Shown here piece after piece: positions 6,156 through 43,183 of a stretch of 64,000 nucleotides of DNA. The notes under the pieces are model-generated. The model did not search any database and was not told where the DNA came from. It saw only the letters and a list, made by a program, of their open reading frames with translations. The stretch's first letter is position 1; each line of letters opens with the position of its first letter. The translations under genes and the position numbers were made by a program. The stretch is taken from NCBI GenBank assembly GCA_963825525.1, contig CAWGTN010000002.1, positions 393,021-457,020 of the forward strand, read 5' to 3'. The stretch comes from an uncultured Chloroflexia bacterium (lineage in GTDB: Bacteria > Chloroflexota > Limnocylindria > QHBO01).

Positions 6156-6986
6156 TGCGACCGATCTGGAAGGGCGCAATCAGCTTCGGGATGGTCACCA
6201 TCCCGGTGAAGGTCTACACGGCCACCGAGGGGAAGGACGTGCGGTTCCGGCTCCTCCACAAGACGGACGGAGCGCCGATCGAGGAGAAGCGGTTCTGCAC
6301 CGAGGATGGGAAGGAAGTGGCCTGGGATGACCTCGTCCGTGGATACGAGGTCAGCAAGGGCGAGTTCGTGATCCTGGAGCCCGACGAGATCGACGCAGCC
6401 AAGCCTGAAAGCAGCACGACGATCGACATCGGCGACTTCGTGGAGGCTTCGGAGATCGACGCCGTCTACTTCGAGAAGAGCTACTTCCTCGAGCCGACCG
6501 GGGTCGGTGCCAAGCCCTTCAGCCTCCTGCGCCGCGCGCTCGAGGAGACCGATCGAGTGGCCCTGGCACGCGTGACACTCCGAACCCGGGAGCGGCTCGC
6601 CACGCTCCGCACGTACGAGGACACGCTGCTCCTCGAGACGATGTTCTGGCCCGATGAGATTCGATCGACCGGTGCGCTGGACCTTCCCGAAGGCGAGGAG
6701 GCGCGCGTCCGTGGCAAGGAGCTCGACATGGCGCGAACCCTCATCGGCGATCTGGCCGACCGGTTCCGTCCCGAGCGCTATACCGACACATACCGGACGG
6801 CGCTCGAGAGCCTGATCGAGCAGAAGATGCGGGGCGAGGTAAAGAACTCGAAGCGTCGAAAGGCCGAGCCCAAGGTCATCGACCTCATGGAGGCGCTCAA
6901 GGCGAGTGTTGCGGAGGCCGGCAAGAAGGGCACGAAGCGTCGCTCCGACCGCGGGCCGGCAGAAGAAGCGCCGCTCCGCCGCCTGA
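6155..6986 (+). CDS. ku: Ku family non-homologous end-joining DNA-binding protein; 3' end inferred assuming a 1-nt indel near 6953
   Basis: N-terminus MRPIWKGAISFGMVTIPVKVYTATE is diagnostic. As given, the frame has no stop until 7795 and runs antisense through the convergent gene. A 1-nt change in the GGG run at 6953-6955 yields the K/R-rich tail ...RRSDRGRQKKRRSAA followed by TGA at 6984-6986. Confidence 0.8.
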
Positions 6987-6991
6987 GTCGG

Positions 6992-7672
6992 CTAGAAGCG
7001 CTCCTGCTCTTCCTCGAGGTCGTCGCCGCCGACGCTCCCCGACCGCTCGGGTTCCGCGGATCCGCCGACACCGAGCGTGACGTCCGCCCGCGACGTCCCC
7101 TCCACTTCGCGACGCTCACCCGGAGTGAAGCTGTCGCTCGTGTCGTCGGGCGTCAGGTCGCCGGTGGCGCCGGTCATGCCGCCACCACCGGCGTTGCCGC
7201 GATCGGTCATCGCTGGCTTCCCGCCTCGACCTCGCCGCGCCAGGCGCCCGATCTCGGAGCCGCGGCTCTCGATGAACTCCTTGAAGCGTTCGAGGTCGCC
7301 CTTGACCTGACGGTCGAGGAACCCGAGCGCGCTTCCGACGGTCTCGACCAGTCCCTCTGGGTCAGCGTCCAGCTGCAGGGTCACCCGGGTCGTCTCGTCG
7401 TCGATGCGGTGAAAAGTCACGACGCCGGCGTTATCGGCGCCCGAGGTGGAGTTCCACGCCACGCGCTCGTCGGCATGCTGCTCGGTGACCTCGGCGTCCC
7501 ACTCCTTTTCCTTGCCCGCCACCTCGGCAACCCAATGGAGATGGGTGTCATCGGTCTGCGTGACCGACTTCACGCCTTCCATGAAGTGAGGGAAGTCCTC
7601 GAACTGGGTCCACTGGTTGTAGGCGGTGCTGACGGGCACCTTGACGTCGATGCTCTCTACGACGGAAGCCAT
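6992..7672 (-). CDS. SRPBCC (polyketide cyclase/dehydrase, START-like) family protein with Gly/Asp-rich C-terminal tail
   Basis: ATG at 7672 with GAGGAG 7 nt upstream; product begins MASVVESIDVKVPVSTAYNQWTQFEDFPHFMEGVKSV. Confidence 0.8.
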   Translation of the reverse strand: MASVVESIDVKVPVSTAYNQWTQFEDFPHFMEGVKSVTQTDDTHLHWVAEVAGKEKEWDAEVTEQHADERVAWNSTSGADNAGVVTFHRIDDETTRVTLQLDADPEGLVETVGSALGFLDRQVKGDLERFKEFIESRGSEIGRLARRGRGGKPAMTDRGNAGGGGMTGATGDLTPDDTSDSFTPGERREVEGTSRADVTLGVGGSAEPERSGSVGGDDLEEEQERF

Positions 7673-7840
7673 GGTCGATCTCCTCTGCGCGTGCGGCGCG
7701 ATGCGATACGTGGTTGCCTGACCACCTTGCAAGGGACGCGCCAGCGCGCACCTCCTCCCATCCCGGCTGAGGGCAAAGGGTCCGTATACTCATGAGGCCC
7801 GCCGCCACCCAGCCCGTCCCGATGTGCCCGCGGAGGCTCC

Positions 7841-10057: not shown

Positions 10058-10084
10058 TCGCGATCCAGACGAGGAGAAGATGAG

Positions 10085-10459
10085 ATGCAGAGACTTGTGC
10101 GCCCGCTGACCGCACTCGCCGCGGGGACGTTGCTCCTCGCCGGCTGCGCGGGGGGCGAATCGGGCTGCACGGACCTCCCGGACCGTGTCGAGATCACCGT
10201 GACCGCCGAGGCATTGGTTCCCGCCCAGCCCGCGGTGTGTGCAGGGCACGAGGTGACGCTGGTCCTGACCGCCGAGGTCGACGGAGTGCTCCACATCCAT
10301 GGCTACGACGAAGAGGCGCCGGCGACCCCGATCGTGGCCGGCGAGGTCAAGGAGCTCACGTTCACGGCGTCCCGCAGCGGTCAGTTTCCGGTGGAGCTCC
10401 ACAGCAATGACGACCCGCAGGGCGTCGATGTAGGGATCTTCACAGTCCATGAGCCCTAG
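10085..10459 (+). CDS. lipoprotein, putative cupredoxin-like metal-binding domain
   Basis: Lipobox LLAGC; HIHGY...ELHS motifs; overlaps the next gene by 11 nt. Confidence 0.65.
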   Translation: MQRLVRPLTALAAGTLLLAGCAGGESGCTDLPDRVEITVTAEALVPAQPAVCAGHEVTLVLTAEVDGVLHIHGYDEEAPATPIVAGEVKELTFTASRSGQFPVELHSNDDPQGVDVGIFTVHEP

Positions 10460-12688: not shown

Positions 12689-12744
12689 GACTGGCACGGG
12701 CCCTGCGTCGTCCCTCTGGCAAAGCCGAGTACCAGGAGAACCCG

Positions 12745-13317
12745 ATGAACCTCGACGGACTCAAGGTCGCCGTGCTGGTGACCGATGGTTACGAGCCAAG
12801 CGAGCTGACGGAGCCGGTCGCCGCCCTGCAGCAGGCGGGAGCGACCACCACGATCATCTCGAACCACGACGGCACCATCACTGGGAAGACTGATGCCGAC
12901 ACCGCGCAGGTCGACCTCACCCTCGACGGGGCCGATGCTGCCGAGTTCGACGCATTGCTGATCCCCGGCGGCACGAAGAATCCCGACACAATGCGACAGG
13001 AGCCGAAGGCGGTCGATTTCGTGCGCGCCATGTTCGACGCGAAGAAGCCGATGGCCTCCATCTGCCACGGCCCGTGGATGCTCATCGAGGCCGACGTCGT
13101 GCGCGGCCGCCGCGTGACGAGCTACCCCTCGCTGAGGACGGACCTGCGCAACGCCGGCGCCGAGTGGACCGATGAGGAGGTCGTCGTCGACCAGGGCCTC
13201 GTCACGGCCCGCACGCCGAAGGATCTCCCCGCGTTCAACGCCAAGATGGTCGAGGAGTTCGGCGAGGGCACCCACGACCGCCGATCGACGGCCGCCGAGC
13301 CCGTCAGCGCCGGCTGA
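12745..13317 (+). CDS. DJ-1/PfpI family protein (type 1 glutamine amidotransferase-like)
   Basis: ATG at 12745 with AGGAGA upstream; motif ASICHGPWMLIEA. The 5' two-thirds of ORF 12034..13317 are nonsense. Confidence 0.85.
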   Translation: MNLDGLKVAVLVTDGYEPSELTEPVAALQQAGATTTIISNHDGTITGKTDADTAQVDLTLDGADAAEFDALLIPGGTKNPDTMRQEPKAVDFVRAMFDAKKPMASICHGPWMLIEADVVRGRRVTSYPSLRTDLRNAGAEWTDEEVVVDQGLVTARTPKDLPAFNAKMVEEFGEGTHDRRSTAAEPVSAG

Positions 13318-13426
13318 CGATCGGGAGGCGGGATGTCGAGCGCGTCCTCGCCCGAGTCGCGCACCGAGGCACCGCAGCAAGCGCCTGCCGAGGGTCGTCC
13401 GGCGCCGTGATCGGTATCCTTGCGGC

Positions 13427-13772
13427 ATGCCAGCCATTCCCAGCGGGACGGTCACCTTCGTGTTCACCGATATCGAAGGCAGCACGCAGCTTCTGAAGCG
13501 GCTTGGAGACCGCTACGCCGAGCTCCTGGGCCAGCATCGGCGCCTGCTGCGCGCCACCTTTGCCGAGCATGACGGCCAGGAGATCGACACGCAGGGCGAT
13601 GCGTTCTTCTATTCGTTCGCACGTGCCCGCCAGGCAGTGGCCGCGGCGGTCCAGGCCCAGCGAGCGCACGACGAAGCCTCGTGGCCCGACGACGTCGTCC
13701 TCCGCGTCCGGATGGGCCTCCACACCGGTGAGCCTCTCGTCGGTGAGGAGGGGTACACCGGCCTCGATGTCG
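13427..13772 (+). pseudogene. 5' fragment of a class III adenylate/guanylate cyclase-domain regulator gene (cyclase-ATPase-LuxR type), truncated
   Basis: MPAIPSGTVTFVFTDIEGSTQLL...GDAFFYSF...RVRMGLHTGEP...YTGLDV matches the cyclase catalytic-domain N-terminus. Homology stops abruptly after about 115 codons. The ORF then runs on through a lower-GC tail into the convergent response-regulator gene. Confidence 0.55.
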
Positions 13773-13913
13773 TCCTGACCGACGATGACTTGGCAGTGGG
13801 CGCCCAGCCCATCCGACATGTTTGCGGTGCTTTCCACCGGATGGACCGCACTTGTCACGATGCTGCCAAAGAGTCGGGGCTCGGCCCTGCACGGACCAGT
13901 ACGTGGAACGCCG

Positions 13914-14507
13914 CTACTCGGTGCCCTCGAGCCAGCCCTCTCGCAGCGCCCTGGCCGTCAGCTCCGTGCGTGAGGCGACGCCCGTTCGTTCGAACAGTCG
14001 CCGCAGATGCGATTCCACGGTTCTCGAGCTGATGCCAAGCCGCCCGCCGATCTCATCGTTCGACGAGCCGCTGACGATGAGGTCGACCACCTCCCGCTCC
14101 CGGGCCGATAGCCGGACCCCACCTCCGGGCCTGACGCCGAAGGCCAGTCCGCCCGAGGCCGCCCGCCGAATCGCGTCCAGCAGCTCCGACGTGGGGGCGG
14201 TCTTGACCACAAACCCGGCCGCGCCGAGCCGCATGGCGGCATCGGCGTATTGAGGGTAGTCGTACGACGTCAGGCAGACCACGGCCGGCAATGCCGAGTC
14301 ACCGCGGTCGCGCAGGAGCTCGAATCCGGACTCCTGCCCGAGGCGGAGGTCGAGCAGCAGGACGTCGACCGAGCCATCGAGGAGCGGGCGCAGCTCGTCC
14401 AGCGATCCAGCCACTCCGGCGATCTGCATGTCATCGGCGCGATCGATGATGGCGGCCGTTCCCTCGCGCACCAGCGGATGGTCGTCGACGACCGCGACCC
14501 GGATCAT
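13914..14507 (-). CDS. two-component response regulator, NarL/LuxR family
   Basis: Receiver domain VAVVDDHPLVREG...LLLDLRL followed by a LuxR helix-turn-helix LSAREREVVDLIVSGSSNDEIGGRLGISSRTVESHL. Confidence 0.9.
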   Translation of the reverse strand: MIRVAVVDDHPLVREGTAAIIDRADDMQIAGVAGSLDELRPLLDGSVDVLLLDLRLGQESGFELLRDRGDSALPAVVCLTSYDYPQYADAAMRLGAAGFVVKTAPTSELLDAIRRAASGGLAFGVRPGGGVRLSAREREVVDLIVSGSSNDEIGGRLGISSRTVESHLRRLFERTGVASRTELTARALREGWLEGTE

Positions 14508-14519
14508 CGGCTCACTGGC

Positions 14520-15611
14520 TCATTGCGGGCGCCACTCGAGAGCGACACGCGTGCCGCCGCTCGGCCAGCGACGAACGTCGAGCAGGGCGCCGATCTGCTC
14601 CGCCCGCTGCTGCATGTTGACGAGCCCGAAGTGGCCATCGCCCGGCGCCTCCTCGGTGGCGTCGGAGCCGATCCCGTCGCCGGCGTCGTCGATGGCCAGC
14701 GTGACCCGTCCATCGGCGCTCACGTCGTAGCGGACCGCGATCGGCGGCTTGCCATGCTTGATCGCATTGGTCAGCGCTTCCTGGGCGACGCGGAAGACCG
14801 CCAGCTCCACGTCGGCGGGCGGGCGCGAGGCGTCGGAGCGCTCGAGCTTCACCACGCCGCCGGCAAGGGGCTCGACACGCTCGACGAGCCATTCGAGCGC
14901 GGCTCCGGCACCCAGATCGTCGAGGATCGGCAGGCGCAGGTCCCCGACCACGGAGCGCAGCTTCGTCGCGACCTCGCGTGCCTCGGCGGCTTCGGCTTCG
15001 TGGCCACCCTCGTCGAGGGTACGGACCAGCATGGTGAGCTGCTGGAGCGCGTCGTCGTGGAGGTCCGCGGCCAGGCGAGCGCGCTCCGTCTCCGCGGCCG
15101 CGACCGCGACGTCGCGCTGGAGCTGGGTCCTGACTGCCAGTCCAACGAGCGGATTGATCGCGAGGTAGCGCCAGACCACGATCCCGCCAAGCCAGCCGGC
15201 AAGGATCAGCCCGCCGGCCGAGTTCGGTACGAGGACCAGCGACGCGACAAGTGGTGTTGCGGCCACCGCAAGCGTCTCGAGGCGCCACGCCATCGCCCTC
15301 GGTTCGGTCCGATCAGCGAAGGCGACCGGGATGCCCGGGATGAGTGGGATCAATCCCACCAGAGGGACGAAGAAGCGGGATTGGAGCAGGGCGGTGATGA
15401 CGAACAGGCCGGCGAGGCCGACCGAAGCCATGAAGAGGCGTGCCGCAAGTGATGGATCGGAGTGGCGCGACGCGAGCAGATGCGCGACCGACAATCCGGC
15501 AAAGGCGGCCGGCAGCAACAGGATCGGTTGACCTTCGGAGTACGACCCCCAGGCGGCGGGCACCAGGAGGATCGGAACGGCGACGGCTGCTGCCAGACGG
15601 AATGGCCGCAT
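14520..15611 (-). CDS. sensor histidine kinase, HisKA_3/NarL-type, multi-TM N-terminus
   Basis: About five TM helices, followed by the H-box LAADLHDDALQQL and an HATPase_c region (DDAGDGIG, GLVNMQQRA). In this frame, TGA lies 20 codons upstream of the ATG. Confidence 0.85.
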   Translation of the reverse strand: MRPFRLAAAVAVPILLVPAAWGSYSEGQPILLLPAAFAGLSVAHLLASRHSDPSLAARLFMASVGLAGLFVITALLQSRFFVPLVGLIPLIPGIPVAFADRTEPRAMAWRLETLAVAATPLVASLVLVPNSAGGLILAGWLGGIVVWRYLAINPLVGLAVRTQLQRDVAVAAAETERARLAADLHDDALQQLTMLVRTLDEGGHEAEAAEAREVATKLRSVVGDLRLPILDDLGAGAALEWLVERVEPLAGGVVKLERSDASRPPADVELAVFRVAQEALTNAIKHGKPPIAVRYDVSADGRVTLAIDDAGDGIGSDATEEAPGDGHFGLVNMQQRAEQIGALLDVRRWPSGGTRVALEWRPQ

Positions 15612-16458
15612 CGGTCCAGTCGCTGCCGAACACGCCCTGGCGCAGCCCGATCCAGATCACGAGGCCGACGGCAGAACCGAGGACGATCGCCCACTCCGAC
15701 TGGTGGGTGAGAGAGATGACCAGTGCGAGGCCGATGAGCGCGAGGGTGAGCAGGTCCCGACGCTCGCGATCGAGCGGGGACGCCGTCGGATCCGGCGAGA
15801 TCCGCACCGATCGCATGCGCGCGAACCCCGCGCTGACCCGTCGCATTCCTCGCTCCCACGGAAGCGCAAAGCTGGTGGCAACAGCCCCGAACGCCACCAT
15901 GGGCCACACCGGCATGACGTCGCTCGGCACGATGGCAACGAGGCCGATGGCGGGCAGGATGCCCAGCGCAAACAGCTGCCCGCGCTCGCGTGCGCTGCGC
16001 TTCCCGGTCAGTCCGGCAAGCACCCCGGGCGCGAATGCAACGGCGCCATAGAGCACGGCGATCGGGCCTCGCTCGTCCGGTGACAGCGTCGGCGTCGTCA
16101 TGTGCTGCACCACGAGCAGCGCCGCCACCACGGCGGCTCCGCCAGTGATCGCCAGTCCCGCCCGCCTACGGCCCTGAGACGACATGTGGTCGACGAGTCC
16201 CATGCCCAGGAGCACGGCCACAGCAAGCGTGGTCGCCCAGGTCGCGGCGACGCCGACCCCGCTACCGACTTCGACGACCGGGACCAGCAGGAGCGGCAAC
16301 GCCACGGCCACAGCGGCGACGAACGCCAAGCGCCGTCCCGCAGCGCCCATCAGTCCGCGGAGGAGGAGATACGCGACGATGGCGGCCAGCAGCAGGCCGA
16401 ACCCCACGGCGTAGATGTCGGTGGCGAGCGTGCTCTCGAGCCACTGGCGCTCCATCAT
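15313..16458 (-). CDS. polytopic membrane protein (LiaF-position partner of the two-component system); true 3' end uncertain
   Basis: TM-rich sequence from MMERQWLESTLATDIYAVGFGLLLAAIVAYLL through to ...IWIGLRQGVFGSDWTD. After that the frame continues as Arg-rich nonsense for 300 nt over the HK N-terminal coding region. Confidence 0.5.
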   Translation of the reverse strand: MMERQWLESTLATDIYAVGFGLLLAAIVAYLLLRGLMGAAGRRLAFVAAVAVALPLLLVPVVEVGSGVGVAATWATTLAVAVLLGMGLVDHMSSQGRRRAGLAITGGAAVVAALLVVQHMTTPTLSPDERGPIAVLYGAVAFAPGVLAGLTGKRSARERGQLFALGILPAIGLVAIVPSDVMPVWPMVAFGAVATSFALPWERGMRRVSAGFARMRSVRISPDPTASPLDRERRDLLTLALIGLALVISLTHQSEWAIVLGSAVGLVIWIGLRQGVFGSDWTDAAIPSGSSRRRSDPPGARRLGVVLRRSTDPVAAGRLCRIVGRASARVAPLRSITCGTPLHGFGRPRRPVRHHRPAPIPLLRPSGGIDPTHPGHPGRLR

Positions 16459-16489
16459 TCCGTACCCGTACACCACGACCCCGCGCTGG

Positions 16490-16978
16490 TCGCCCTCGAA
16501 CGCGCCTGTCTTCGTAGACGTCGCCCACGATGATGCCGGCGATGCGGCCGGATGAGATCGCCTCGATCGGGATGGACATGGCGTCGCCGTATTCCGAGTG
16601 CATGACGACCTCCCCGACGCCAGGCGAATCCAGCGTCGATACGGACTCAACCGGGGCACCGTCGACCGTGGTCAGGGACACGACGCGCGAGCCGGGGTAG
16701 ATGCCGTTGCGCGCGGCGTTCCCATCAGGCGTGACGGACACGACGAAGACGCCCGGGAGGGTCGCATCCGCGAATCCGGGCAAGGGCATCATCGCGGCGG
16801 CCTGCGATCCCTCCGCGAGCTCGAGCCCGATGGCGACGCGGCCGTTCGCCCACAACGCGACGCTCGACAGCACGGCGCCGGTCGCGATGAGGATCGCCAG
16901 GACGTCGCGCCAGGTGGGTCGCAGCGGCATGCTCGGACCATACCAGCGCTCCATCGGCCCACCAATGCGGTAGATCAC
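16490..16978 (-). CDS. membrane-anchored PDZ domain protein, N-terminal part; reading frame lost near 16500 (possibly one gene with 15313..16458)
   Basis: Product begins MIYRIGGPMERWYGPSMPLRPTWRDVLAILIATGAVLSSVALW, followed by a PDZ-like GVFVVSVTPDGNAARNGIYPGSRVVSLTTVDGAPV. After IIVGDVYEDRR the frame turns to Arg-rich nonsense. Confidence 0.5.
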
Positions 16979-17182
16979 CTAATCGGAAGCGGTGAGCCAC
17001 CGGATGGGCGTCGGCTCATCTCACGGTCACCATTGGCTGCCGAGGAGGTGAATCGATGCAGACCCTTCGCGCGTCCGCCATCGCGGTCCCGTTCGTCGCC
17101 CTCGCCGTGCTGGTGGCGCTGCTCTCTCTGATCGTCGGGCCGGGGGCCTAGGCGTCTTTGCCGGCTAAGCACCGAGATTCGG

Positions 17183-17611
17183 CTAGGCGGGCGAGGCGTC
17201 CCCGATTTGACGGCCTTCACCTTCGCAGCCCCAGCCGATCCTTGGCTGCGGACGGCCACCGATCAAGGGTCCGTCGCGTTCGACGAACACGATGAGCTGC
17301 TCGTTCGGTGTCCCCGCGACGTCGCCAACTTCGCCGTCGGGCGGCGGCACGCACCAGCACTCGGAGTAGCCTGCGTTCCCGTTCATCGACGTCCCGTAGG
17401 AGTAGCGCCAGCTTGGACGGATGCCAGCAGCCTCGAGCGCCGCGCTCGCCTCTTCGGCGCTGAGTCCGGTGATCGGAGGCACTTCCCTGTCGCCAAGCAC
17501 CTCATCGGCAGCCGGCGGGTCCTGGCAAGCCAAACCGCTCTCTCCGATCCCGAGCCCGCACGCCGTCAGCACCGTGAACAGGCCGATGAGCAACCCGACT
17601 CGCACGACCAT
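17183..17611 (-). CDS. lipoprotein with PASTA-like domain
   Basis: Lipobox LTAC; motif ITGLSAEEASAALEAAGIRPSW. Confidence 0.6.
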   Translation of the reverse strand: MVVRVGLLIGLFTVLTACGLGIGESGLACQDPPAADEVLGDREVPPITGLSAEEASAALEAAGIRPSWRYSYGTSMNGNAGYSECWCVPPPDGEVGDVAGTPNEQLIVFVERDGPLIGGRPQPRIGWGCEGEGRQIGDASPA

Positions 17612-17612
17612 G

Positions 17613-17714
17613 CTACGAGCGGCGGAACGCGAAGATCATCACCACGATCACGATGATGACCACGACCAGCCCCACGATGAGCCCGACTGGCGAGCCAACA
17701 TCGACCGTATTCAC
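17613..17714 (-). CDS. candidate small single-TM peptide (33 aa)
   Basis: GTG start giving MNTVDVGSPVGLIVGLVVVIIVIVVMIFAFRRS; the stop TAG abuts the lipoprotein ATG. The complementary strand here reads as a His/Asp-rich low-complexity stretch. Confidence 0.3.
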   Translation of the reverse strand: MNTVDVGSPVGLIVGLVVVIIVIVVMIFAFRRS

Positions 17715-17739
17715 GCGGCGATCCTCCCCTGGGTCGTTC

Positions 17740-17815
17740 TGGCGCCCCCGGAGGGATTCGAACCCCCGACGCCCGCCTTAGGACGGCGGCGCTCTATCCA
17801 CTGAGCTACGGGGGC
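17740..17815 (-). tRNA. tRNA-Arg (anticodon CCT)
   Basis: Manual fold: acceptor GCCCCCG/CGGGGGC, D-arm GCTCAGTGGATAGAGC, anticodon stem CCGCC/GGCGG with loop GTCCTAA, T-arm GGGGGTTCGAATCCCTC, encoded CCA. Confidence 0.9.
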
Positions 17816-23571: not shown

Positions 23572-24741
23572 CTACGAGCCCCGCTTCGCCACGCCGGCCC
23601 GCTGGAGGAGCTGGCGCGCGATGATGAGGCGCTGGATCTGCTGGGTTCCCTCGTACAGCTGCGTGATCTTGGCGTCACGCATCATGCGCTCGACCGGATA
23701 CTCGGTGATGTAGCCGTACCCGCCCAGAACCTGGACGGCGTCGGTGGTCACGCGCATGGCAGTGTCACCTGCCACCAGCTTCGCGCTCGACGTCCAGTAT
23801 GGGAGGTCGGGCGCATTCGCATCAACGCGAGCCGCGGCCGCGTAGGTGAGCTGCCGGGCCGCCTCGTTCTGGGATGTCATGTCGGCAAGCATCCACCCGA
23901 TGCCCTGGAAGTCGGCCACGCGTTGGCCGAACTGCTGGCGGTCGGCTGCATAGGCCACCGCGGCGTCGATGGCTCCCTGCGCGATGCCCACGGCCTGCGC
24001 CGCGATCCCGAGCCGGCTGCGGTCCAGGGTCTCCATCGCGATCCTGAAACCCTCCCCCTCCTCGCCGAGGCGGTTGGCGAGCGGCACGCGGACGTCGTCG
24101 AATGTGAGCTCTGCCGTGGGCGAGCCTCGGATCCCCATCTTGTGCTCGACCCGCGGAGCCGCGAAGCCGGGCGTATCGGCCTCGACGATGAAGGCGCTCA
24201 TGCCCTTGCGCCCGCCGGCCTCCGCATCGGTGATGGCGAATACGGTCAGAACGTTGGCCACGCTGCCGTGGGTGATGAAGCGCTTGCTGCCGTTCAGGAC
24301 GTAGACATCGCCATCGCGCACCGCGCGCATGTGGTTGCTTGCCACGTCGCTGCCGGCCGCGGCCTCGGTCAGCCCGAAGGCGATCAGCCACTCGCCCGAG
24401 GCGAGCCGCGGGAAGTAGCGGTCTCTCTGCTCGTCGGACCCGGCCAGGATGATCGGCAGGGCGCCGAGCTTCTGGACGATCGGGATGAGGCTGGTCGTCG
24501 CGTCCGCCCGGGCGATCTCCTCGACCAGGATGCTCTGCGCGACCGTGTCGAGGTTCGTGCCGCCGTGCCGCTCCTCGAAGCAGGTCCCGAGGAGGTCCTG
24601 CTGGGCGAGCAGCTGGCGGAGGTCCTCGGGGAACTCGGCCTTCGCGTCGATGTCGGCGGCGCGTGGCGCGATCTTCTCGTCGGCCAGCTCGCGCACCACG
24701 GCGCGCAGCTCATCGTGCTCTGCGGTCGGAAGGTAGGTCAC
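23572..24741 (-). CDS. acyl-CoA dehydrogenase
   Basis: 389 aa; motifs GSDVAS and YEGTQQIQRLIIARQLL. Confidence 0.9.
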   Translation of the reverse strand: MTYLPTAEHDELRAVVRELADEKIAPRAADIDAKAEFPEDLRQLLAQQDLLGTCFEERHGGTNLDTVAQSILVEEIARADATTSLIPIVQKLGALPIILAGSDEQRDRYFPRLASGEWLIAFGLTEAAAGSDVASNHMRAVRDGDVYVLNGSKRFITHGSVANVLTVFAITDAEAGGRKGMSAFIVEADTPGFAAPRVEHKMGIRGSPTAELTFDDVRVPLANRLGEEGEGFRIAMETLDRSRLGIAAQAVGIAQGAIDAAVAYAADRQQFGQRVADFQGIGWMLADMTSQNEAARQLTYAAAARVDANAPDLPYWTSSAKLVAGDTAMRVTTDAVQVLGGYGYITEYPVERMMRDAKITQLYEGTQQIQRLIIARQLLQRAGVAKRGS

Positions 24742-25704: not shown

Positions 25705-27155
25705 CAGCCCGTCAGCTCGGCCGCGAACTCGCCGAAGACCTCGATGTAGCGATCGATGTCGGCGTTGGTGTGCTGCACCGAGAGCGTCCACTGGTCGTCC
25801 GGACCGGGCGGAAGCAGGATCCCGCGGTTCGCCAGGTAAAAGAAGCTGGCTGCCCACAGGTCGGAGTCCAGGTCGACCAGGGTTCGGTAGTTGGTGACGC
25901 GCTCCGGGGTGAACATCACGCAGCCCTTGGGACCGACGTTGATCGCGTAGCCCGGCAGCCCATGGTCATCGATCACGGACTGGCTGCCTGTCGTGAGCCG
26001 GTCGGCCATCGCGTTGAGCACCGGATAGGCGTCCTTGGTGAGGATCTGGGTGAGCGTCACGACGCCGGCGGTCATCGACAGCGGATTCCCGTTGAAGGTG
26101 CCCAGGTGTGCGACGCGGGTCGCACCGCTCGGAAGCGTCGAGCGCTCCATCCCCGAGCCGAGCGCCCCACTCATGCCGGCGAAGTGCTGGCTGCCCTCGA
26201 GCGTCTCGATGACGCGCATCACCTCGGCACGCCCGCCGAAGGCGCCGATCGGGATGCCGCCGCCGATGCTCTTTGCCAGGCAGAAGAGATCGGGCTTCAC
26301 GCCGTAGTACTCGTAGGCCCCGCCCCAGGCGATCACAACGCCGGTCTTGACCTCGTCGAAGATGAGCACGACGCCGTGCTCGGTTGCCAGCTCGCGAACG
26401 CGCTGCAGGAATCCCGGCTCGGGCGGGACGACGCCGATGTTGAACTGGACGGGCTCCACGATGATCGCGGCGATCTCGCCCTCGTGGGCCTGGAGGATCG
26501 CCTCGAGCATGTCGGGCTCGTTGAACGGAGCGATGACGGTCTCCGCGATCCGGCTGCGCGGGATGCCGGCACTTGCCGGCACGGTGGCCGGAGCGTCGAT
26601 CGGTCCCATGGCCTCGCGCGGCGGCTGAATGCTGACCAGCACGTCGTCATGGTGGCCGTGATAGCCGCCTTCGAACTTGATGATCTTCTCGCGTCCGGTG
26701 TAGCCGCGGGCCACGCGGATGGCGTCCATGGTGGACTCGGTGCCCGAGTTGCTGAAGCGCACGGAATCGGCGCCAAAGCGGGCTCGGATCTCCTCGGCCA
26801 GCGTCACGCCGTCCTCGACCGGGAAGGTGTAGCACGTGCCGTTCGCCACGCGCCGCTGAAGGGCCTCCGCCAGCAGCGGATGCGAGTGACCGGCGGCCAG
26901 CACGCCGAACGCCATGTCGAAGTCGATGTACTCGTTGCCGTCCGCGTCCCAGATCCGGCTGCCCCGGGCGTCGCCCATGAACAGCGGATATGGGTCGTAG
27001 GCCTGAAACGAGCTTGCGACGCCAAGCGGCATGGACTCGCGCGCGCGATCGAAGAGCGCCTTGCTCTTTGCGGTTCGCGCCCGATACGCCGCCTCTTCCC
27101 GCGCGCCGATCTCGTTGACGCGCGCCCGATCGATTTCGTGCCTGGTGACCGTCAC
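25704..27155 (-). CDS. class III (aspartate aminotransferase fold) aminotransferase, glutamate-1-semialdehyde aminomutase-like
   Basis: GTG at 27155 with AGGAGG 6 nt upstream. PLP-lysine region FDEVKTG. Confidence 0.85.
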   Translation of the reverse strand: MTVTRHEIDRARVNEIGAREEAAYRARTAKSKALFDRARESMPLGVASSFQAYDPYPLFMGDARGSRIWDADGNEYIDFDMAFGVLAAGHSHPLLAEALQRRVANGTCYTFPVEDGVTLAEEIRARFGADSVRFSNSGTESTMDAIRVARGYTGREKIIKFEGGYHGHHDDVLVSIQPPREAMGPIDAPATVPASAGIPRSRIAETVIAPFNEPDMLEAILQAHEGEIAAIIVEPVQFNIGVVPPEPGFLQRVRELATEHGVVLIFDEVKTGVVIAWGGAYEYYGVKPDLFCLAKSIGGGIPIGAFGGRAEVMRVIETLEGSQHFAGMSGALGSGMERSTLPSGATRVAHLGTFNGNPLSMTAGVVTLTQILTKDAYPVLNAMADRLTTGSQSVIDDHGLPGYAINVGPKGCVMFTPERVTNYRTLVDLDSDLWAASFFYLANRGILLPPGPDDQWTLSVQHTNADIDRYIEVFGEFAAELTG

Positions 27156-27690: not shown

Positions 27691-27854
27691 TCCGCAACAT
27701 TCGAGGTCCGATTCTACGGATTCCGCGAGGTTTGACGGAATCCGTGGGGTTTCGAGGGTGCTGTTCAGTGGCGTTGGCTCAGGTGGGTGGGTTGGGGGCC
27801 GCGGACGGCGGCGGCGACGGCGGCAGCGACGCTTTGGGTGATCCGGTGCCGCTC

Positions 27855-28252
27855 GACTTGTCAACTGCACCCCACACGCGCATTAGCGGGGGCAGAGGCC
27901 GGCGGCGACCCGTGGCCACGCTCAGCAACGCCGCCCGAGACTCCTGATTACCCGCTAATGCGAACCAGGCGAGCAGTTGTCAGGGCGCGGCGCGGGGACC
28001 GGTGAGCTGCATCCGTGGTGCGCGCTACCCGGCCGCAGAGACCAGACGCGAGCCGGGCCAGACGACCCAGCGCCGCCCGACTTGTCAACTGCACCCCCCA
28101 CGCGCATTAGCGGGCGCCGAGGCCGGCGGCGAGCAGTGCCCACGCTCAGCAACGCCGCCCGAGACTCCTCACTACCCGCTAATGCGAACCAGGCGAGCAG
28201 TTGTCAGGGCGCGGCGCGGGGACCGGTCAACTGCACCTCACACGCGCATGAG
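27855..28252. repeat. tandem direct repeat of a ~150-bp unit (2 full copies + partial third; ~223-bp period), each carrying a 12-bp inverted repeat and a nested helix
   Basis: Copy 1 is 27855-28004, copy 2 is 28078-28227, and a partial third copy is 28228-28252. The copies are ~90% identical. Inverted arms cgcattagcggg / cccgctaatgcg lie ~65 nt apart, enclosing GGCGGCG...CGCCGCC. Confidence 0.8.
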
Positions 28253-28288
28253 CTGGCCGCGGAGACGCAACGCTCCAGCTCTCCAGCG

Positions 28289-30532: not shown

Positions 30533-31505
30533 CTAGTGGTCGCCCCCGGCCAGCTGGTCGAGCGCATGACGCAGGACGGGTGACAGGGCGTCGAACGACT
30601 CCAGTGGCACCCCGGGGCGAACCGGGCAGGTTGACGATGAGCGTGGCTCCACGCGAGCCGACAACGGATCGCGAGAGGGCGGCCATCGGCGTCGAGGCCA
30701 CACCAACCGACCGCATGAGCTCAGCGAGCCCAGGAGCCTCGCGGTCGATCACCCGCCGCGTCGCCGCCGGCGTGACGTCGGTGGGCGACATTCCGGTGCC
30801 CCCGGTCGTGAGGATCAACCGATGGCCGGCATCGGCCAGGGAGATGAGCAGCGCCGCGATCTCCGACTCGTCATCGCGCACCACGACGGCCTGCGGCGCG
30901 ACATCGAATCCCGCGCCACGCGCACGAGTGACCAGCTCCGGACCGGAGAGGTCGTCCCGCTCCCCTGCCGCGGACCGATTCGAGCAGGTCACGACGATCG
31001 CCTCGTGATCCGCTCGCGGGACGGGGGCAACGTCAAGCCGATAGTCCCCCGAACGACCCCCGTACTTCTCCAGCAGGGTCACGCCCCCAATGACGATGTC
31101 CCTCTGCAGCGCCTTCGCCATGTCGTACACGGTCAGTGCGGCCACGCTGACTGCGGTCAGCGCCTCCATCTCGACGCCGGTCCGTGCCGTCACGCTGACC
31201 TCGGCACGGATGACCACGGTGCCGGCGGCCGAGTCGGGCTCCAGCTCCACGCTTACCCTGTCGAGAGGGAGGGGATGGCAGAGGGGAATGAGCTCGCTCG
31301 TTCGCTTCGCCGCGCCGATGCCGGCCAGTCGCGCGGTGACGAGGGCGTCGCCCTTTGGCCCGCCACCGGCGAGGAGCGCTTCGAGCACATCGGGGCGCAT
31401 GTGGACCGTCGCCTGGGCCACCGCGCGGCGCGCGGTGATCGGCTTGTCACCCACGTCGACCATCCGCGGCGCCCCGTCATCGTCGAGATGGGTCGGGCGG
31501 GTCAT
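30533..31505 (-). CDS. moaC: bifunctional molybdenum cofactor biosynthesis protein MoaC/MoaB(MogA-like) fusion; apparent 1-nt frameshift near 30610-30617
   Basis: MoaC part [10 protein letters not shown]...LCHPLPL, then MoaB part ...[11 protein letters not shown]...[11 protein letters not shown]. The C-terminus [22 protein letters not shown] is encoded in the +1 frame and ends at TAG 30535-30533. Confidence 0.8.
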
Positions 31506-32699
31506 GCCAGCGCACCGAGCAGGATCGCGTCGTACTCGCCGCCGATGCGCGTCGCCGGCTCACCCTCGGGCACCACCAGCAGCCCGTTCGCCGACGCGAG
31601 GGGCAACAGCTGCGAGGAGCCCTGGCCCCCGGCCGAGGTTGCCCGATAGCCGGTTGCATCGGCTTCGACCCTGACCCGCAGGTAGGCGCGACGACCGGGA
31701 TCCTTGGCGATCTCCTCTTCGGTCCGCGCTCGCACACGAACGCGGTCGTCGACCGACAGGCCCAGCATGGCGCGGATCATGGGGCGCACGAACACCTCAA
31801 AGGTGACGAGGGCACTCACCGGGTTCCCCGGCAGGCCGATGAACGGCAGCACGCCGATCTTCCCATACGCGAGTGGCTTGCCGGGCTGCACCGCGATCCG
31901 CCAGAAGTCCAGGTCTCCGAGGCGCTCGATCACGGCTCGCACGTGATCGTGCTGGCCCACGCTCACGCCCCCTGATGCAACGAGCAGGTCCGAGCCACCG
32001 GTCGCGTCACGGATCCGCGCCTCGATGACCTCCGGATCATCGGGCGCCCGCTCAAGGATGTTCGGCATGCCGCCCGCCTCCTCGACCGCCGCGGCGAGCG
32101 CGAAGGCATTGGCATCGTAGATCTGGCCGTGGCCAAGGTGATCTCCGGGCGACCGCAGCTCGTCGCCGGTCGACAGGATCGCCACGGTGGGACGGCGGCG
32201 GACCGCGACGGTCGCGACACCCATGGCCGCCAGCAGCCCGATGGCCGACGCTGTCAGCGGCGTCGACCCGATGGGGACGCGCTGGCCACGGCCCACGTCC
32301 AACCCTGCAGGCCGAACGTGAGAGCCGGGCACCGGAGACAGCGAGAATTCCACGTGGCCGTCACGCTCGACGGCATCCTCGATCGGCACGATCGTGTCCG
32401 CACCGTCCGGGACGGGGGCCCCGGTCATGATGCGCACCGCCGTGCCCGGTGCGACGGCCGGTGCCGGTGGCCCACCCGCTCGCGACTCACCGATCACCGG
32501 ACGGCTCCGTCGGTCATCCGAGGAACACACGGCGTACCCGTCCATCGCCGAGTTGTCGAATGTCGGAACGTCGGCACTCGCGACGATCTCGCGGCTCGGA
32601 TGGCACCCGGCCACGGGCTTCCGACAGTGGCACCTTCTCAGAGTCCACGATGCTGACCGCACTGACGAGCCTGCGAAGCGCCTCGTCGACCGAGAGCAT
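31502..32699 (-). CDS. moeA: molybdopterin molybdotransferase MoeA; apparent 1-nt frameshift near 32585-32600
   Basis: The N-terminus [32 protein letters not shown] is in one frame (ORF 32514..32699). The body ...[14 protein letters not shown]...GDEL... is in the 386-aa ORF 31502..32662. Confidence 0.85.
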
Positions 32700-36524: not shown

Positions 36525-36547
36525 CTCACTCGACTTCCTTGCGACAC

Positions 36548-36592: not shown

Positions 36593-36753
36593 ACATGCGG
36601 GCACGACAGACGCCCCATGCCGATCCGAATTCGTCTTGTGAGTGCGGATGGCGCGAACGTTGTGGTTCGTCAACCCGGGGTGGCCCGGAGCGCCGCGTCG
36701 GATGTCCGCCGTCTCCAGCGCGGCGCGACGGCCGACAGCTCGGGATCGAAGGA

Positions 36754-36830
<77 letters not shown>

Positions 36831-36861
36831 GACCGACGGCGGTCAGTATAGCGGCCACCGC

Positions 36862-37875: not shown

Positions 37876-37885
37876 GGCTGCATCC

Positions 37886-39349
37886 TCACCGCCGCCGGTT
37901 CGTCGCTCGCTTTCGCGGTCGCACGGACTTCCGCGCCGCCTCCTCCGACTCCCGCTTGCGCAGGATGAGCCGGATCGGCGTGCCCAGGAAGCCGAACTTC
38001 TCGCGAACCTGGTTCTCGAGGTAGCGCTTGTAGCTGAAGTGGACGATCTCCGGGTCGTTGCAGAAGACCACGAAGGTCGGTGGCGCAACGCCCACCTGGG
38101 TCGCATAGAAGATCTTCGGCAGCCGATTCCGCACGTGCGACGGCGGATGCGCTCGGACAGCATCCATGATGAGCCGATTCAGCTCGCCCGTCGGAACGCG
38201 CCGATACCGCTCCTCGGCCACGCGCAGCGCCTCGCGGAGGATTCGCTCGAGTCGCTGTCCGGTCAGTGCCGAACCGAACACGATGTCCGCCCAGGCCAGG
38301 TACGGCGCGTCGCGACGGAGTCGCTTCATCCAGCGGTCGGCGGTGTTCTCGTCCTTCTCCACCGCGTCCCACTTGTTGAGGACCAGGACGATCCCCTTGT
38401 GCGCCTCGAGGACGTAGCCGACCACGTGGGCGTCCTGCGCGGTGTACCCCTCGATCGCGTCGATCATGACCACGGCCACGTCCGCCGAGTCGATGGCCTT
38501 CATGCTGCGCAGCACGCTGTAGCGCTCGATCCCGCGGTCGATGGAGCCACGGCGTCGGATGCCGGCCGTATCCACCAGCACGAGCGGCTGTCCGTCGAGC
38601 TCGATGGCCGTGTCGATCGGGTCGCGGGTGGTGCCCGGCGTATCCGAGACGATCATGCGCTCCGAGCCGAACACGCGGTTCACGAACGTCGACTTGCCCG
38701 TGTTCGGCCGTCCCACGATGGCGATCCGCGGCGCGCCGAGTTCCGTCTCGGCCAGCTCCGCCATCTCTTCCTCGGTCATGTCCTCCGGCTCGAGGATCAC
38801 GGCATCCTCGGCTTCGGTCTTCGGCGGAAGGCCCTCGACGATGAGGTCGGCCAGGTCGCCGGTATTGCGCCCGTGCTGCGCGCTGACCGTGATGGCAGGA
38901 TCGAATCCCAGGGCGTAGAACTCGACCGCATCGGCCTCGCGCGCCGGGTTGTCGCCCTTGTTGATGACCAGGATCACCGGCGCCTCGGCTCGGCGCAGGC
39001 GATCGGCCACGTCGTGGTCGAGAGGTGCAAGTCCGACATGGGCGTCGACCACGAAGAGGATGAGATCGGCTTCCTCGACCGCCACGCGCGCCTGGTCCTG
39101 CACCCGCTCCTCGATGTGCGTCCCGGGCTCGAGCTCCAGGCCCCCGGTGTCGACGACCGTGAAGGTCCGGCCATTCCATTCGGCCGTCCCGTAGACGCGG
39201 TCGCGAGTCGTGCCGGAGACGTCGGAGATGATCGCCACGCGCTCGCCGATCAGCCGGTTGAAGAGCGTGCTCTTGCCGACGTTCGGGCGACCGACGATGG
39301 CGACCACGGGAAGGGAGGACATCGACTGAGTGTAGCGGCGTGTCGCCAT
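37886..39349 (-). CDS. der: ribosome biogenesis GTPase Der (EngA), tandem GTPase domains + KH-like C-terminus
   Basis: Two G1 boxes, GRPNVGKST and GRPNTGKST. The start may be Met10 at 39322. Confidence 0.9.
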   Translation of the reverse strand: MATRRYTQSMSSLPVVAIVGRPNVGKSTLFNRLIGERVAIISDVSGTTRDRVYGTAEWNGRTFTVVDTGGLELEPGTHIEERVQDQARVAVEEADLILFVVDAHVGLAPLDHDVADRLRRAEAPVILVINKGDNPAREADAVEFYALGFDPAITVSAQHGRNTGDLADLIVEGLPPKTEAEDAVILEPEDMTEEEMAELAETELGAPRIAIVGRPNTGKSTFVNRVFGSERMIVSDTPGTTRDPIDTAIELDGQPLVLVDTAGIRRRGSIDRGIERYSVLRSMKAIDSADVAVVMIDAIEGYTAQDAHVVGYVLEAHKGIVLVLNKWDAVEKDENTADRWMKRLRRDAPYLAWADIVFGSALTGQRLERILREALRVAEERYRRVPTGELNRLIMDAVRAHPPSHVRNRLPKIFYATQVGVAPPTFVVFCNDPEIVHFSYKRYLENQVREKFGFLGTPIRLILRKRESEEAARKSVRPRKRATNRRR

Positions 39350-39409
39350 GGCATCGGACGATGGTCCCGGAGGCTACGACGGGCGGACGCCGCGCATTAG
39401 GATCAGGCC

Positions 39410-40675
39410 ATGAGGATCGGGTTCGTCGCCACGAGACTGTTCGGCGTCGACGGGGTGACCTTCGAAGCCGCGAAGTGGGAGGCCGTGCTCGGGCGCATGG
39501 GCCACGAGATGCGCCTGCTGGCGGGCGAGGTGGACGCACTCCGGCCGAACGCCACGATGGTGCCCCCGATGCACTTTGCCTATCCACCCGCCGCTCGTGT
39601 CACCGCCGCCGCATTCGACCCGGCCAGCGATCCCGACGCGGTGCGTGCCGAGATCCAGCGGCTCGCCAACCAGCTCCTGCCGGTACTGCACAGCTGGGTT
39701 CAGGTCCAGCACATCGAGCTGCTGGTGATCGAGAACGCCTGGGCCATCCCGATGCACCTTCCACTCGGCGTTGCGCTGCGACGGCTCGTCGAAGAGACGG
39801 GTCTTCCGGCGATCGGCCACCACCACGACTACTGGTGGGAGCGGGAACGGTTCGCAGGCTGCGTGGTTCCGGAGGTGCTCGAGGCGGCGTTTCCTCCGGC
39901 CATGCCCGGCGTCCGTCACGTCAGCATCAACAGCCTGGCGGCCGATCAACTGCGCCGGCGTCGAGGCATCGCGTCCTCGGTTGTGCCGAATGTCTTCGAC
40001 TTCGCAATGGGCCGACCGCGCCCGCATCCCGCCGTCCGTCGTCAGTTGCGTGCCGAGCTCGGCATGGGCGAGCGAGGCGTGCTCGTCGTTCAGCCGACGC
40101 GGGTCGTGCCGCGCAAGGGCATCGAGCTTGCGATCGAGCTCGTCGGACGCCTGCGCGATCGGCACGCCGTGCTTCTGATCACGAGTCCGGCCGGCGACGA
40201 GGGCCTCGACTACCTCGTTGAGCTCGAGCGCCGGGCCGATGGCGCGGGGGTGCGCCTGCGCTACGCGGCGGATCGGTTCACGCCTGACTTCGAGGGTCAG
40301 CCACTCCGACCGGCCCATTCGCTCCACGACGCCTACCTGGCCGCGGATCTCATCACCTACCCGTCGCTGTACGAGGGGTACGGCAATGCGCTGGTGGAGG
40401 CGATCTACTACGGGAAGCCGACCGTCGTGAATCGCTACAGCGTCTATGAGGCCGACATCCGGCCCCTCGGCTTTCGGCTCATCGAGATCGATGGCGCAAT
40501 CAGTGCCGACACCGTCAGCGAGGTCCGAGCCACGCTGGCGGACCCGCGCCGCCAGGCGAGGGTCGCCCGCAAGAACTTCGAGATCGGCAGGCGCCACCTC
40601 TCGTACGAGGTCCTTCGAAGCCGCCTGCGACGCTACATCGGCAAGCTGACCGAGACACGGGAGCAACCAGGATGA
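39410..40675 (+). CDS. glycosyltransferase, GT-B fold (family 4-like)
   Basis: C-terminal motif YPSLYEGYGNALVEAIYYGKPTV. Confidence 0.8.
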   Translation: MRIGFVATRLFGVDGVTFEAAKWEAVLGRMGHEMRLLAGEVDALRPNATMVPPMHFAYPPAARVTAAAFDPASDPDAVRAEIQRLANQLLPVLHSWVQVQHIELLVIENAWAIPMHLPLGVALRRLVEETGLPAIGHHHDYWWERERFAGCVVPEVLEAAFPPAMPGVRHVSINSLAADQLRRRRGIASSVVPNVFDFAMGRPRPHPAVRRQLRAELGMGERGVLVVQPTRVVPRKGIELAIELVGRLRDRHAVLLITSPAGDEGLDYLVELERRADGAGVRLRYAADRFTPDFEGQPLRPAHSLHDAYLAADLITYPSLYEGYGNALVEAIYYGKPTVVNRYSVYEADIRPLGFRLIEIDGAISADTVSEVRATLADPRRQARVARKNFEIGRRHLSYEVLRSRLRRYIGKLTETREQPG

Positions 40676-40687
40676 CCTGAGGCCCGC

Positions 40688-41569
40688 TCAGGCTGTCAGC
40701 GCGAAGACCCGTTCCCGGATTTCCTCGAGGTCAACCTCCGGCGTGGATGTGCCGCCGGTGATGCCGATGCGGGCCTTGCCCTGCAGCCAGCCGGCGTGCT
40801 CGGCGGCGAGCTCATCGGCATCGGCGACGTGAACCGTATCGGGCAGGATCTCGCGGCATTTCACGGCGAGCTCCTTGGTGTTCGAGCTGTTCTTGCCGCC
40901 GACCACGATCATGGCGTCGACCTCCTTGGCGAGCGCCACAGAGTCGTCCTGGCGCGTGAGCGTCACGGGGCAGACGGTATTCACCACCCGCAGGTCGTGG
41001 GCGCGGCGCAGGCAGAACGCGGCGAACTCTTCGAGCTTCTGCGGCAGGATCGTCGACTGGCTCAGCACGCCGATCTTCTTGGTGCGTGGCACGCGCTCCC
41101 AGGTGGATCGGTCCATGTCATCCACGACGACGTGCTTCTCGCCGGCGTAGGAGCGGACGCCCTTGACCTCCGGATGATCCTCGTGGCCGATGATGCAGAC
41201 CGTGTAGCCGGCCTCCGCAAGCTCCCGGGCCGCTTTCTGCGACTGGAGAACCCAGGTGCAGGTGGCATCGATGACCTCGAGGCTCCCCTTGCCCTTCACC
41301 GTCTCGAACTCGGACTTCGGCACGCCATGGGCACGGATGACGAGGGTGCCACCCTCGACCTGGTCGGCGAGGTCGGCGGTGCGGATGCCGCGGTCCGATA
41401 GATCGGCCTTGATACCGGGGTTGTGTACCAGCTGGCCGAGGGTGGTCACGTCCTTCCCCTCGCTTCGGGCGTGCTTGGCCTTGTCGATCGCCAGCCGCAC
41501 GCCGTAGCAGAAGCCGGCGCGCTCGGCGATGCGAACGTCGGGTCGGGTGGCCGTGGTCATGACATCCAT
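40688..41569 (-). CDS. ispH: 4-hydroxy-3-methylbut-2-enyl diphosphate reductase
   Basis: Motifs RAGFCYGV, ...HNP... and ...TVCPVT...; the start is Met42/Met45 of the ORF. Confidence 0.9.
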   Translation of the reverse strand: MDVMTTATRPDVRIAERAGFCYGVRLAIDKAKHARSEGKDVTTLGQLVHNPGIKADLSDRGIRTADLADQVEGGTLVIRAHGVPKSEFETVKGKGSLEVIDATCTWVLQSQKAARELAEAGYTVCIIGHEDHPEVKGVRSYAGEKHVVVDDMDRSTWERVPRTKKIGVLSQSTILPQKLEEFAAFCLRRAHDLRVVNTVCPVTLTRQDDSVALAKEVDAMIVVGGKNSSNTKELAVKCREILPDTVHVADADELAAEHAGWLQGKARIGITGGTSTPEVDLEEIRERVFALTA

Positions 41570-41667
41570 TCTAGAAGGGATACGACGCAGGTTCCGTACC
41601 GGCATCATGTGAATGACGGCGGCCCACCGTAGGATGGGTGTTACCCACCGTACTGGAGATGTTGCAA

Positions 41668-41868
41668 ATGTCCGGACACCACAACGAATCACCCCTCGAA
41701 ATGGCCGAGGATCTCCCGGCCGAGACGTTCATCGCCGCGACCGGCCTGTCCATCGCACTGTCGCTCGTGCTCTATGCCACCGGCCGCAAGCAGGCGGCGC
41801 AGTTCGTCGGCCTCTGGGCACCGACGATCATCAACCTCGGCCTGTTCCTGAAGCTCATCCGCAGGTAG
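41668..41868 (+). CDS. small membrane protein, hypothetical
   Basis: ATG at 41668 with GGAG 9 nt upstream; two hydrophobic helices. Confidence 0.45.
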   Translation: MSGHHNESPLEMAEDLPAETFIAATGLSIALSLVLYATGRKQAAQFVGLWAPTIINLGLFLKLIRR

Positions 41869-41876
41869 CCGTCGGG

Positions 41877-42515
41877 CTACTGCTGGGCCGGGGGGAGCAG
41901 CGCCCGCACTGCGGCGTGCATCCGGGCCGTTGCCTGCTCGAGGGCCTCGCGGTCGATACGTCCCGATGGCTGATGTGGAAGGGTGATCGGTTCCCCGATC
42001 CGCACGGTCAGGCGGGTCGCGTGAGGGATGCGGGAGCCGTCGGGGAAGAGCCGGTGTGATCCGGCGATCGCGACCGGCAGCACCGGAGCACCGGACCGGA
42101 TGGCGAGGAACGCTGCCCCGGACTTGAACTCCTTCAGGTGGCCGTTTCTTGATCGCGTGCCCTCCGCGAAGATCGCGATCGGGCGGCCGGAGGCCAATGT
42201 CTCGAGGCTGAAGCGCTGCGCGTTTCGGTCGCCTTCCCCACGCCGCACGAAATACGTGCCTGACTGGGTCGCCAGCCAGCCGATGAAGAACCAGCTGCGC
42301 ATCTCGATCTTGGCCATGAAGTGAATCACGCGCCCCACCTGGTGGCCGGTCGCCCAGCCGATGAAGGGCGGATCCAGGTTCGAGCAGTGGTTCGACACCA
42401 GGATGAACGACCCCGTGCGCGGCACGTGCTCGACTCCCTCTGCCCGCAGTCCCCACAGCAGGCGCGCCGCCCCAGCGATGAGTGCCGCACCGGGATGGAA
42501 GAACCAGCTACGCAT
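41877..42515 (-). CDS. plsC: 1-acyl-sn-glycerol-3-phosphate acyltransferase
   Basis: Motifs NHCSNLD (HX4D) and FAEGTRS; ATG at 42515. Confidence 0.85.
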   Translation of the reverse strand: MRSWFFHPGAALIAGAARLLWGLRAEGVEHVPRTGSFILVSNHCSNLDPPFIGWATGHQVGRVIHFMAKIEMRSWFFIGWLATQSGTYFVRRGEGDRNAQRFSLETLASGRPIAIFAEGTRSRNGHLKEFKSGAAFLAIRSGAPVLPVAIAGSHRLFPDGSRIPHATRLTVRIGEPITLPHQPSGRIDREALEQATARMHAAVRALLPPAQQ

Positions 42516-43183
42516 CGAGCTCCTCCAGGCGAGCCACCATGGCGTCGACGCATTGGGTGACGTCCAGCCGGCCCGTGTCAAGCACCAGGGCATTCGGAGG
42601 AACGCGAAGCGGGGCCACGGCTCGCTCCGAGTCCGCCGCGTCGCGGTCCCGAATCTCGGCCAGGTATGCGGCGACGCGATCCGGACGCCCCATCTCGTTC
42701 GCACGACGCGCGGCGCGGACCTCGGCATCGGCTGTCAGGAACACCTTGAGCGTCGCTTCGGGCAGCACCACGGTGCCGATGTCGCGCCCGACCATGACCA
42801 CGTCGCCGCGCATGCGCCGTCGCTCGCTGGACGCCGAGCATCGCCTCGCGAACCTCCGCGTGCCGGCTCACCGCACTGACGGCCCGGTCCACGGGTGGGG
42901 TGCGGACCTCGAGCGTCACGTCGCGCCCCTCCAGCCGCACCGTCTCGAGACGGTCCACCTGGTGGGCTGCGGGCTTCTCGACCGCGATCGCGCAGTCATT
43001 GGCGAGCCGTCCGAGTGCCGCGCCGTCATGCAGGTCAACCCCGCGCTCGAGAGCGGCGAGCGTCAGGGCCCGGTACATGAGCCCGGTGTCGACGAACGTG
43101 GCGTCGATGCGGCGCGCGAGCGCATGGCCCACCGTGCTCTTGCCTGCACCCGACGGGCCGTCGACGGCGATCGCCCGGCTCAT
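42508..43183 (-). CDS. cmk: cytidylate kinase; apparent 1-nt frameshift near 42800-42840
   Basis: N-terminal half MSRAIAVDGPSGAGKSTV...REAMLGVQR is in ORF 42578..43183. C-terminal half RGDVVMVGRDIGTVVLPEATLKVFLTA... is in ORF 42508..42813 in the +1 frame. Confidence 0.85.

Follow-up and report, generated by a model that had tools for sequence, protein, structure and literature searches.

The subject of this analysis is a 64,000-nt stretch of contig CAWGTN010000002.1 (the window), assigned by named homologs to Candidatus Limnocylindria within the Chloroflexota, in which seven single extra bases disturb the reading frames of genes coding for Ku, an SRPBCC-family protein, a PDZ-like/membrane/HisKA_3 kinase, MoaCB, MoeA and cytidylate kinase (Cmk). 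These breaks very probably arose as bases wrongly inserted when the consensus of a metagenome assembly, presumably a long-read one, was built, the real genes being intact, and a substantial share of them seemingly derive from collapsed strains. We infer this technical cause from the comparison of related sequences. Finding seven genes' worth of breaks among about 60 would be exceptional for an intact free-living genome, in which pseudogenes account for a few percent at most.

Seven single-base insertions in the window

Reading frames were called from codon usage instead of open reading frame (ORF) length, the window having a G+C content of 69%, and Pfam profile scans covered about 60 ORFs. For comparison, exact-protein look-ups supplied four related contigs, which belong to three ENA metagenome assemblies and together span positions 1-54,496 (Table 1). 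A first-pass annotation had proposed single-base frame corrections in the Ku gene, a PDZ/membrane gene, moaCB, moeA and cmk; all five proved real when ORFs, Pfam domains and relatives were compared, and two more were identified. All seven lesions are +1 insertions, the window being one base longer than the relatives with an intact gene, and deletion of a single base restores proteins of family-normal length (Ku 276 aa, MoeA 398 aa, MoaCB 323 aa, Cmk 224 aa and the kinase 810 aa). The coding signal runs straight on across each break, with codon-usage segments abutting at the sites. Every one of the seven insertions adjoins a third codon position, and none lies in a homopolymer. At four sites (6947, 7252, 15598 and 42815) the extra base is missing from every related contig that covers the site, while those at 16510 and 32592 are also present in contig_2968 and that at 30602 in contig_37013. 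No further frame breaks were seen in the window at 1-6900 or 42900-64000. The remaining switches of frame suggested by coding potential (2945, 37900, 48990, 54700-55430 and 58400) correspond to ordinary gene boundaries.

The uncorrected Ku ORF holds a complete Ku domain, then runs on without a stop until 7795 (546 aa), passing antisense through the neighbouring gene. Contig_2968, contig_37013 and contig_4305 read CGCTCC-ACC at the site and all code for a Ku of 276 aa. The repaired protein is 99% identical to one homolog (P0142), and the 120 Ku homologs among the matches listed measure 271-300 aa. A GGG run had been taken for the site of this break, a placement that does not hold, as the run is identical in all assemblies and the extra base is found 6-8 nt from it. 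Close by, the insertion at 7252 creates an in-frame fusion of a 154-aa SRPBCC gene with a 72-aa ORF; three relatives read CCCGA-CTCGG and carry the two as separate genes with a 4-nt overlap.

The PDZ/membrane gene is a single gene read in three frames, comprising a PDZ-like segment, a polytopic membrane segment and a HisKA_3/HATPase kinase. At 15598, contig_34270 (CAGA-GG) and contig_2968 (CAG-CGG) both lack the extra base, and the window (CAGACGG; CCG plus T on the coding strand) holds both alleles of a synonymous CCT/CCG proline single-nucleotide polymorphism (SNP). This second switch of the kinase gene also explains the overlap at 15313-15611, for which the same cause had been rightly suspected. 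At 16510, the extra base is absent from contig_34270, which reads GAA; the window has GAA followed by G, beside a GAG allele in contig_2968. A total of 38 homologs of the repaired kinase (742-835 aa; JGI, NCBI, ENA and Logan) each span 91-100% of it in a single alignment, and in one relative the ORF (692 aa) is unbroken over both window break sites.

The uncorrected moaCB ORF contains a full MoaC domain, followed by a MoaB part that ends at profile position 133 of 144, and extends 140 nt into the next gene. Contig_34270, contig_2968 and contig_4305 are 1 nt shorter here and encode a 323-aa MoaCB, the intact relatives having either GCG or GCT (both Ala) at the site. In the window (ACTG) and in contig_37013 (GCTG), T and G occur together. 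The C4G4 tract to which the first-pass annotation had attributed this break is the same in all assemblies; the insertion lies 6-8 nt outside it.

The uncorrected moeA ORF begins at profile position 31 only, the N-terminal 32 residues lying in another frame, and the true N-terminus, which includes EARGRV, is found just downstream of the stop codon of an M50 protease gene. The extra base is absent from contig_37013, which codes for an intact 398-aa MoeA (P0123), and from contig_4305. Repaired MoeA has the same length as 102 of the 120 homologs among the matches listed, and its junction GRVPSEP|EIVASADVP agrees with a homolog that is 85% identical (P0001). Finally, cmk is split between 42581-43228(-), matching positions 1-111 of the Pfam Cytidylate_kin profile, and 42511-42867(-), matching positions 112-209. 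Contig_2968 and contig_4305 read CATG-GCCG without the extra base and encode a 224-aa Cmk.

Table 1. Extra bases, related contigs and further features, with positions in the window
Feature	Position	Strand	Details
Extra G in Ku	6947	+	Window TCC[G]ACC; corrected gene 6155-6986
Extra base at the SRPBCC gene	7252	- (gene)	T on the + strand; joins SRPBCC gene 7207-7672 to ORF 6992-7210
Kinase gene	14520-16954	-	Frame switches near 15600 and 16507 (coding potential, scans)
Extra base within the kinase gene	15598	-	Accounts for the overlap 15313-15611
Extra base between PDZ-like and membrane parts of the kinase gene	16510	-	Coding-potential switch at 16507
Extra base close to the moaCB 3' end	30601-30603 (30602 in the text)	-	Corrected gene 30533-31505
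Extra base in moeA	32592	-	107 nt into the gene; corrected gene 31502-32699
Extra base in mid-cmk	42815	-	The two Pfam halves join here; corrected gene 42508-43183
contig_34270			ERZ25039476, 18 kb, 99.0% identity to the window; broken: CCG/Fe-S oxidoreductase, PDZ-like part of the kinase
contig_2968			ERZ25039476, 915 kb, about 98% identity; broken: dxs, ispH/lytB, rluB, scpA, lit, ABC permease, copCD, moeA, kinase
contig_37013			ERZ25039530, 299 kb, 98.7-99.1% identity (94% in one noisy 1.7-kb stretch); broken: moaCB, lytB, etfA; plus indel-dense stretches
contig_4305			ERZ25039498, 2.32 Mb, 95-97% identity (93% in one 1.6-kb stretch); broken: moeA, lytB, NAD kinase
Indel-dense stretch, L005 1-800	42695-41900
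Indel-dense stretch, L002/L004	36567-36745
Indel-dense stretch, L008 19101-20831	17739-19461
Indel-dense stretch, L006	39341-39782
tRNA gene	17743-17815	-	Rfam RF00005, 62 bits
tRNA gene	36758-36831	-	Rfam RF00005, 61 bits

Reciprocal damage and selection on the corrected frames

Each of the four relatives has single-base insertions of its own, which disrupt genes that are unbroken in the window (Table 1), and across the assemblies isolated 1-nt insertions outnumber deletions by about 32 to 9. The first-pass annotation had preferred assembly or sequencing indel error to pseudogenes, a preference supported by the intactness of the genes in near-identical assemblies, by the reverse damage in these, by the exclusive occurrence of +1 insertions in the window and by the persistence of coding signal and third-position SNP bias in the corrected frame. 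Conserved genes with frameshifts are likewise what decaying bacterial pseudogenes look like, and the breaks could in principle be real mutations; this strain, or a population of strains, would then be losing genes as a small genome decays or is streamlined, and frameshift alleles would segregate between strains. In keeping with such decay, the genome is small (2.02 Mb), and three of the seven insertions recur in a second assembly, which stems from a different ENA analysis. However, the set of broken genes differs from one assembly to the next, most breaks being private to one of them, and it includes dxs, ispH and cmk, genes with which bacteria using the methylerythritol phosphate (MEP) pathway cannot normally dispense. 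Moreover, unlike pseudogenes undergoing decay, the broken genes show one lesion per break, with no second lesions, in-frame stops or deletions, and coding potential that continues beyond the break. Downstream of the breaks, 24 of the 35 window-private SNPs (69%) occupy third codon positions when read in the corrected frame, and selection has therefore acted on that frame in the lineage of the window. Decay is further at odds with the restriction of the lesions to insertions, several of them carrying both alleles of a strain SNP. Altogether, we regard decay as very unlikely.

The three shared sites (16510, 30602 and 32592) lie in backgrounds that are locally up to 4% diverged, and the groupings that they imply conflict with one another and with overall similarity, a pattern that fits a recurrent artefact better than inheritance. 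That some extra bases, above all these three, are real frameshift alleles in the natural Limnocylindria population appears highly improbable; if they were, a strain-level loss of molybdenum-cofactor and signalling genes would be ongoing in a streamlined 2-Mb genome.

The same correction, the skipping of one base, is required at all seven sites, as would be the case if programmed +1 recoding, either by ribosomal frameshifting or by transcriptional slippage, yielded full-length proteins from the sequence as it stands. Yet the seven sites have no sequence motif in common, the affected genes are functionally unrelated, and the same proteins are encoded in one frame in close relatives and as single ORFs in homologs across the class, so that we give recoding practically no credence.

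Two further observations concern the distribution of variation along the window. Window-private SNPs cluster in the broken genes at 42508-43183, 14520-16954 and 31502-32699 (7-19 per gene), and the intact control genes at 37886-39349, 23572-24741 and 25704-27155 have 0-1 each; this excess partly reflects which relatives cover each gene, and would also fit a clustering of errors in strain-variable regions. In addition, 1-base indels relative to the window are scattered by the dozen over some short parts of the related ENA contigs (Table 1), where the consensus looks locally unpolished or very thinly covered.

Collapsed strain mixtures as a likely source of part of the extra bases

Frameshift-causing indels are well documented in long-read assemblies (PMC9262707). 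Nanopore and PacBio continuous long read data, as addressed by IDEEL-type tests and by proovframe, show the same splitting and truncation of genes by single bases (PMC9262707; bioRxiv 10.1101/2021.08.23.457338). The present case resembles these in its frequency of about one break per 9 kb, in the intactness of the genes in relatives and in the Flye-style names of the megabase contigs. A long-read platform and a Flye-type assembler are suggested solely by these contig sizes and by the "contig_N" names. The literature on such errors stresses deletions in homopolymers, whereas all seven changes in the window are insertions outside homopolymers.

A substantial share of the errors may be explained if the assembly merged reads of strains that occur together and are 95-99% identical. 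Where these strains differ by a SNP, usually at a synonymous third codon position, the consensus would retain both alleles side by side and thereby gain one base; the remaining errors would be ordinary residual insertion errors. In agreement with this scenario, two strains of the species co-occur in ERZ25039476. The pattern of both alleles is seen at 15598 and 30602, as well as at 16510 by our own reading of the alignment. More generally, 6 of the 32 testable insertions in all assemblies are exact chimeras, consisting of a prefix of one haplotype and a suffix of another, which no single haplotype explains; such chimeras made up 0.8% of simulated random insertions, corresponding to an enrichment of about 20-fold. 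With contig_4305 extended, 10 of the 12 insertions in contig_2968 are compatible with joins of a window-like and a contig_4305-like haplotype, and contig_2968 looks like a mosaic of these two, as in collapsed-haplotype errors. Insertions adjoin a third codon position in 29 of 35 cases when the window and the other assemblies are pooled, versus two-thirds expected (p = 0.03); in the other assemblies alone the proportion (22 of 28) is not significant (p = 0.13). The excess of C among the 35 inserted bases (17 C versus 9 G) is not significant either.

Consensus errors due to strain collapse are the problem addressed by Strainberry and Strainy, and the insertions on strain SNPs with both alleles observed here are of a similar kind. 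No paper describing this exact signature of retained alleles was found, and the link is drawn from our sequence comparison, which suggests that the consensus of mixed-strain long reads would sometimes keep both alleles of a SNP.

Several points weigh against consensus error as the explanation. Both alleles are present among the available relatives at only two to three of the seven window sites, and no matching SNP was found among them at 6947, 7252 and 42815. Three of the seven sites occur in a second assembly, a degree of sharing that purely random error would not give; strain mixtures, an error tied systematically to context or true inheritance would be needed to account for it. Furthermore, the short-read Logan contigs L003 and L012, which show no gaps against the window, span only 43346-45978 and reach none of the seven sites, and a search for Logan short-read contigs near the 72-aa ORF that neighbours 6947 and 7252 gave none.

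The lack of a matching SNP at 6947, 7252 and 42815 would equally be expected of generic residual indel noise in long reads, arising from low coverage or missing polishing, mainly in homopolymers, and having no link to strain mixtures. In the related contigs, some insertions (41284, 28294, 45492, 54233 and 15186) indeed simply duplicate a base or alter a homopolymer, and contig_37013 and contig_2968 hold indel-dense stretches typical of poorly covered regions. Such noise is nevertheless difficult to reconcile with the absence of window sites from homopolymers and the unchanged C4G4 and GGG tracts, with the enrichment of exact two-haplotype chimeras over random insertions, with the recurrence of three window sites in an independent assembly and with the position of all seven next to a third codon position. 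We consider it a possible, if rather doubtful, explanation for the whole set. Of the first-pass proposal, indel error is supported; plain low coverage is less so, several errors being located at strain SNPs with both alleles retained, which points to collapsed strain mixtures. Insertion errors of a presumably long-read consensus, a substantial share of them seemingly linked to collapsed strains, are the explanation that we retain.

Genomic context and consequences for the gene set

Apart from these breaks, Pfam scans show the window to be an ordinary chromosomal stretch. It harbors genes for Ku, copCD, a two-component system, etfAB, moaCB-moeA, gpsA-der and ispH, together with plsC-cmk-rluB-scpAB, recN, dxs, xseAB and efp, and two tRNA genes (Table 1). 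The window's own proteins are found on a contig of 2,018,507 bp in NCBI and ENA. The window and its four related contigs, which stem from three separate assemblies, all share one orientation; the chance of this is about 1 in 16.

Some parts of the window vary among strains. The block at 13317-17733, which carries an adenylate-cyclase-like gene, a response regulator and the PDZ-like kinase and ends beside the tRNA gene at 17743-17815, may be a variable region adjoining this tRNA. Contig_34270 and contig_2968 share its response-regulator and kinase part, the latter being unaligned over the cyclase at 13318-13913; contig_4305, with an alpha/beta hydrolase at this place, either lacks the block or has had it replaced, and contig_37013 shows a rearrangement of it. 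Between der and ispH, the region 39340-40692 with a GT4 glycosyltransferase gene at 39410-40675(+) is present in the window and in contig_37013, and contig_2968 and contig_4305 have a shorter unrelated stretch instead; this region looks like a strain-variable islet.

An intergenic tandem duplication was also identified at 27840-28273, between the CCG/Fe-S oxidoreductase gene and a gene for an asnC/lrp-type regulator. It consists of two units of about 210-224 nt that are 86% identical, each with an imperfect inverted repeat of 37-44 nt (TTGTCAACTGC...GCAGTTGTCA) whose arms are 60 nt apart. The repeat has no match in Rfam, its predicted RNA fold is no more stable than that of shuffled sequences (z = 0.33), and it shows indel variation among the related assemblies.

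The relevance of the seven extra bases is to data quality, not to biology. About one gene in nine in the window is mis-called, the products including a 546-aa "Ku", a spurious SRPBCC fusion, a cmk in two pieces and, as P0002 among the public proteins, a MoeA truncated to 331 aa. At the same rate, the 2.02-Mb contig would contain roughly 200 such errors, and the same cause should be the first suspicion for any odd overlap, fusion or truncated gene in other parts of the window. The insertions that carry both alleles suggest strain-aware polishing, rather than homopolymer correction, as the remedy for assemblies of this kind.

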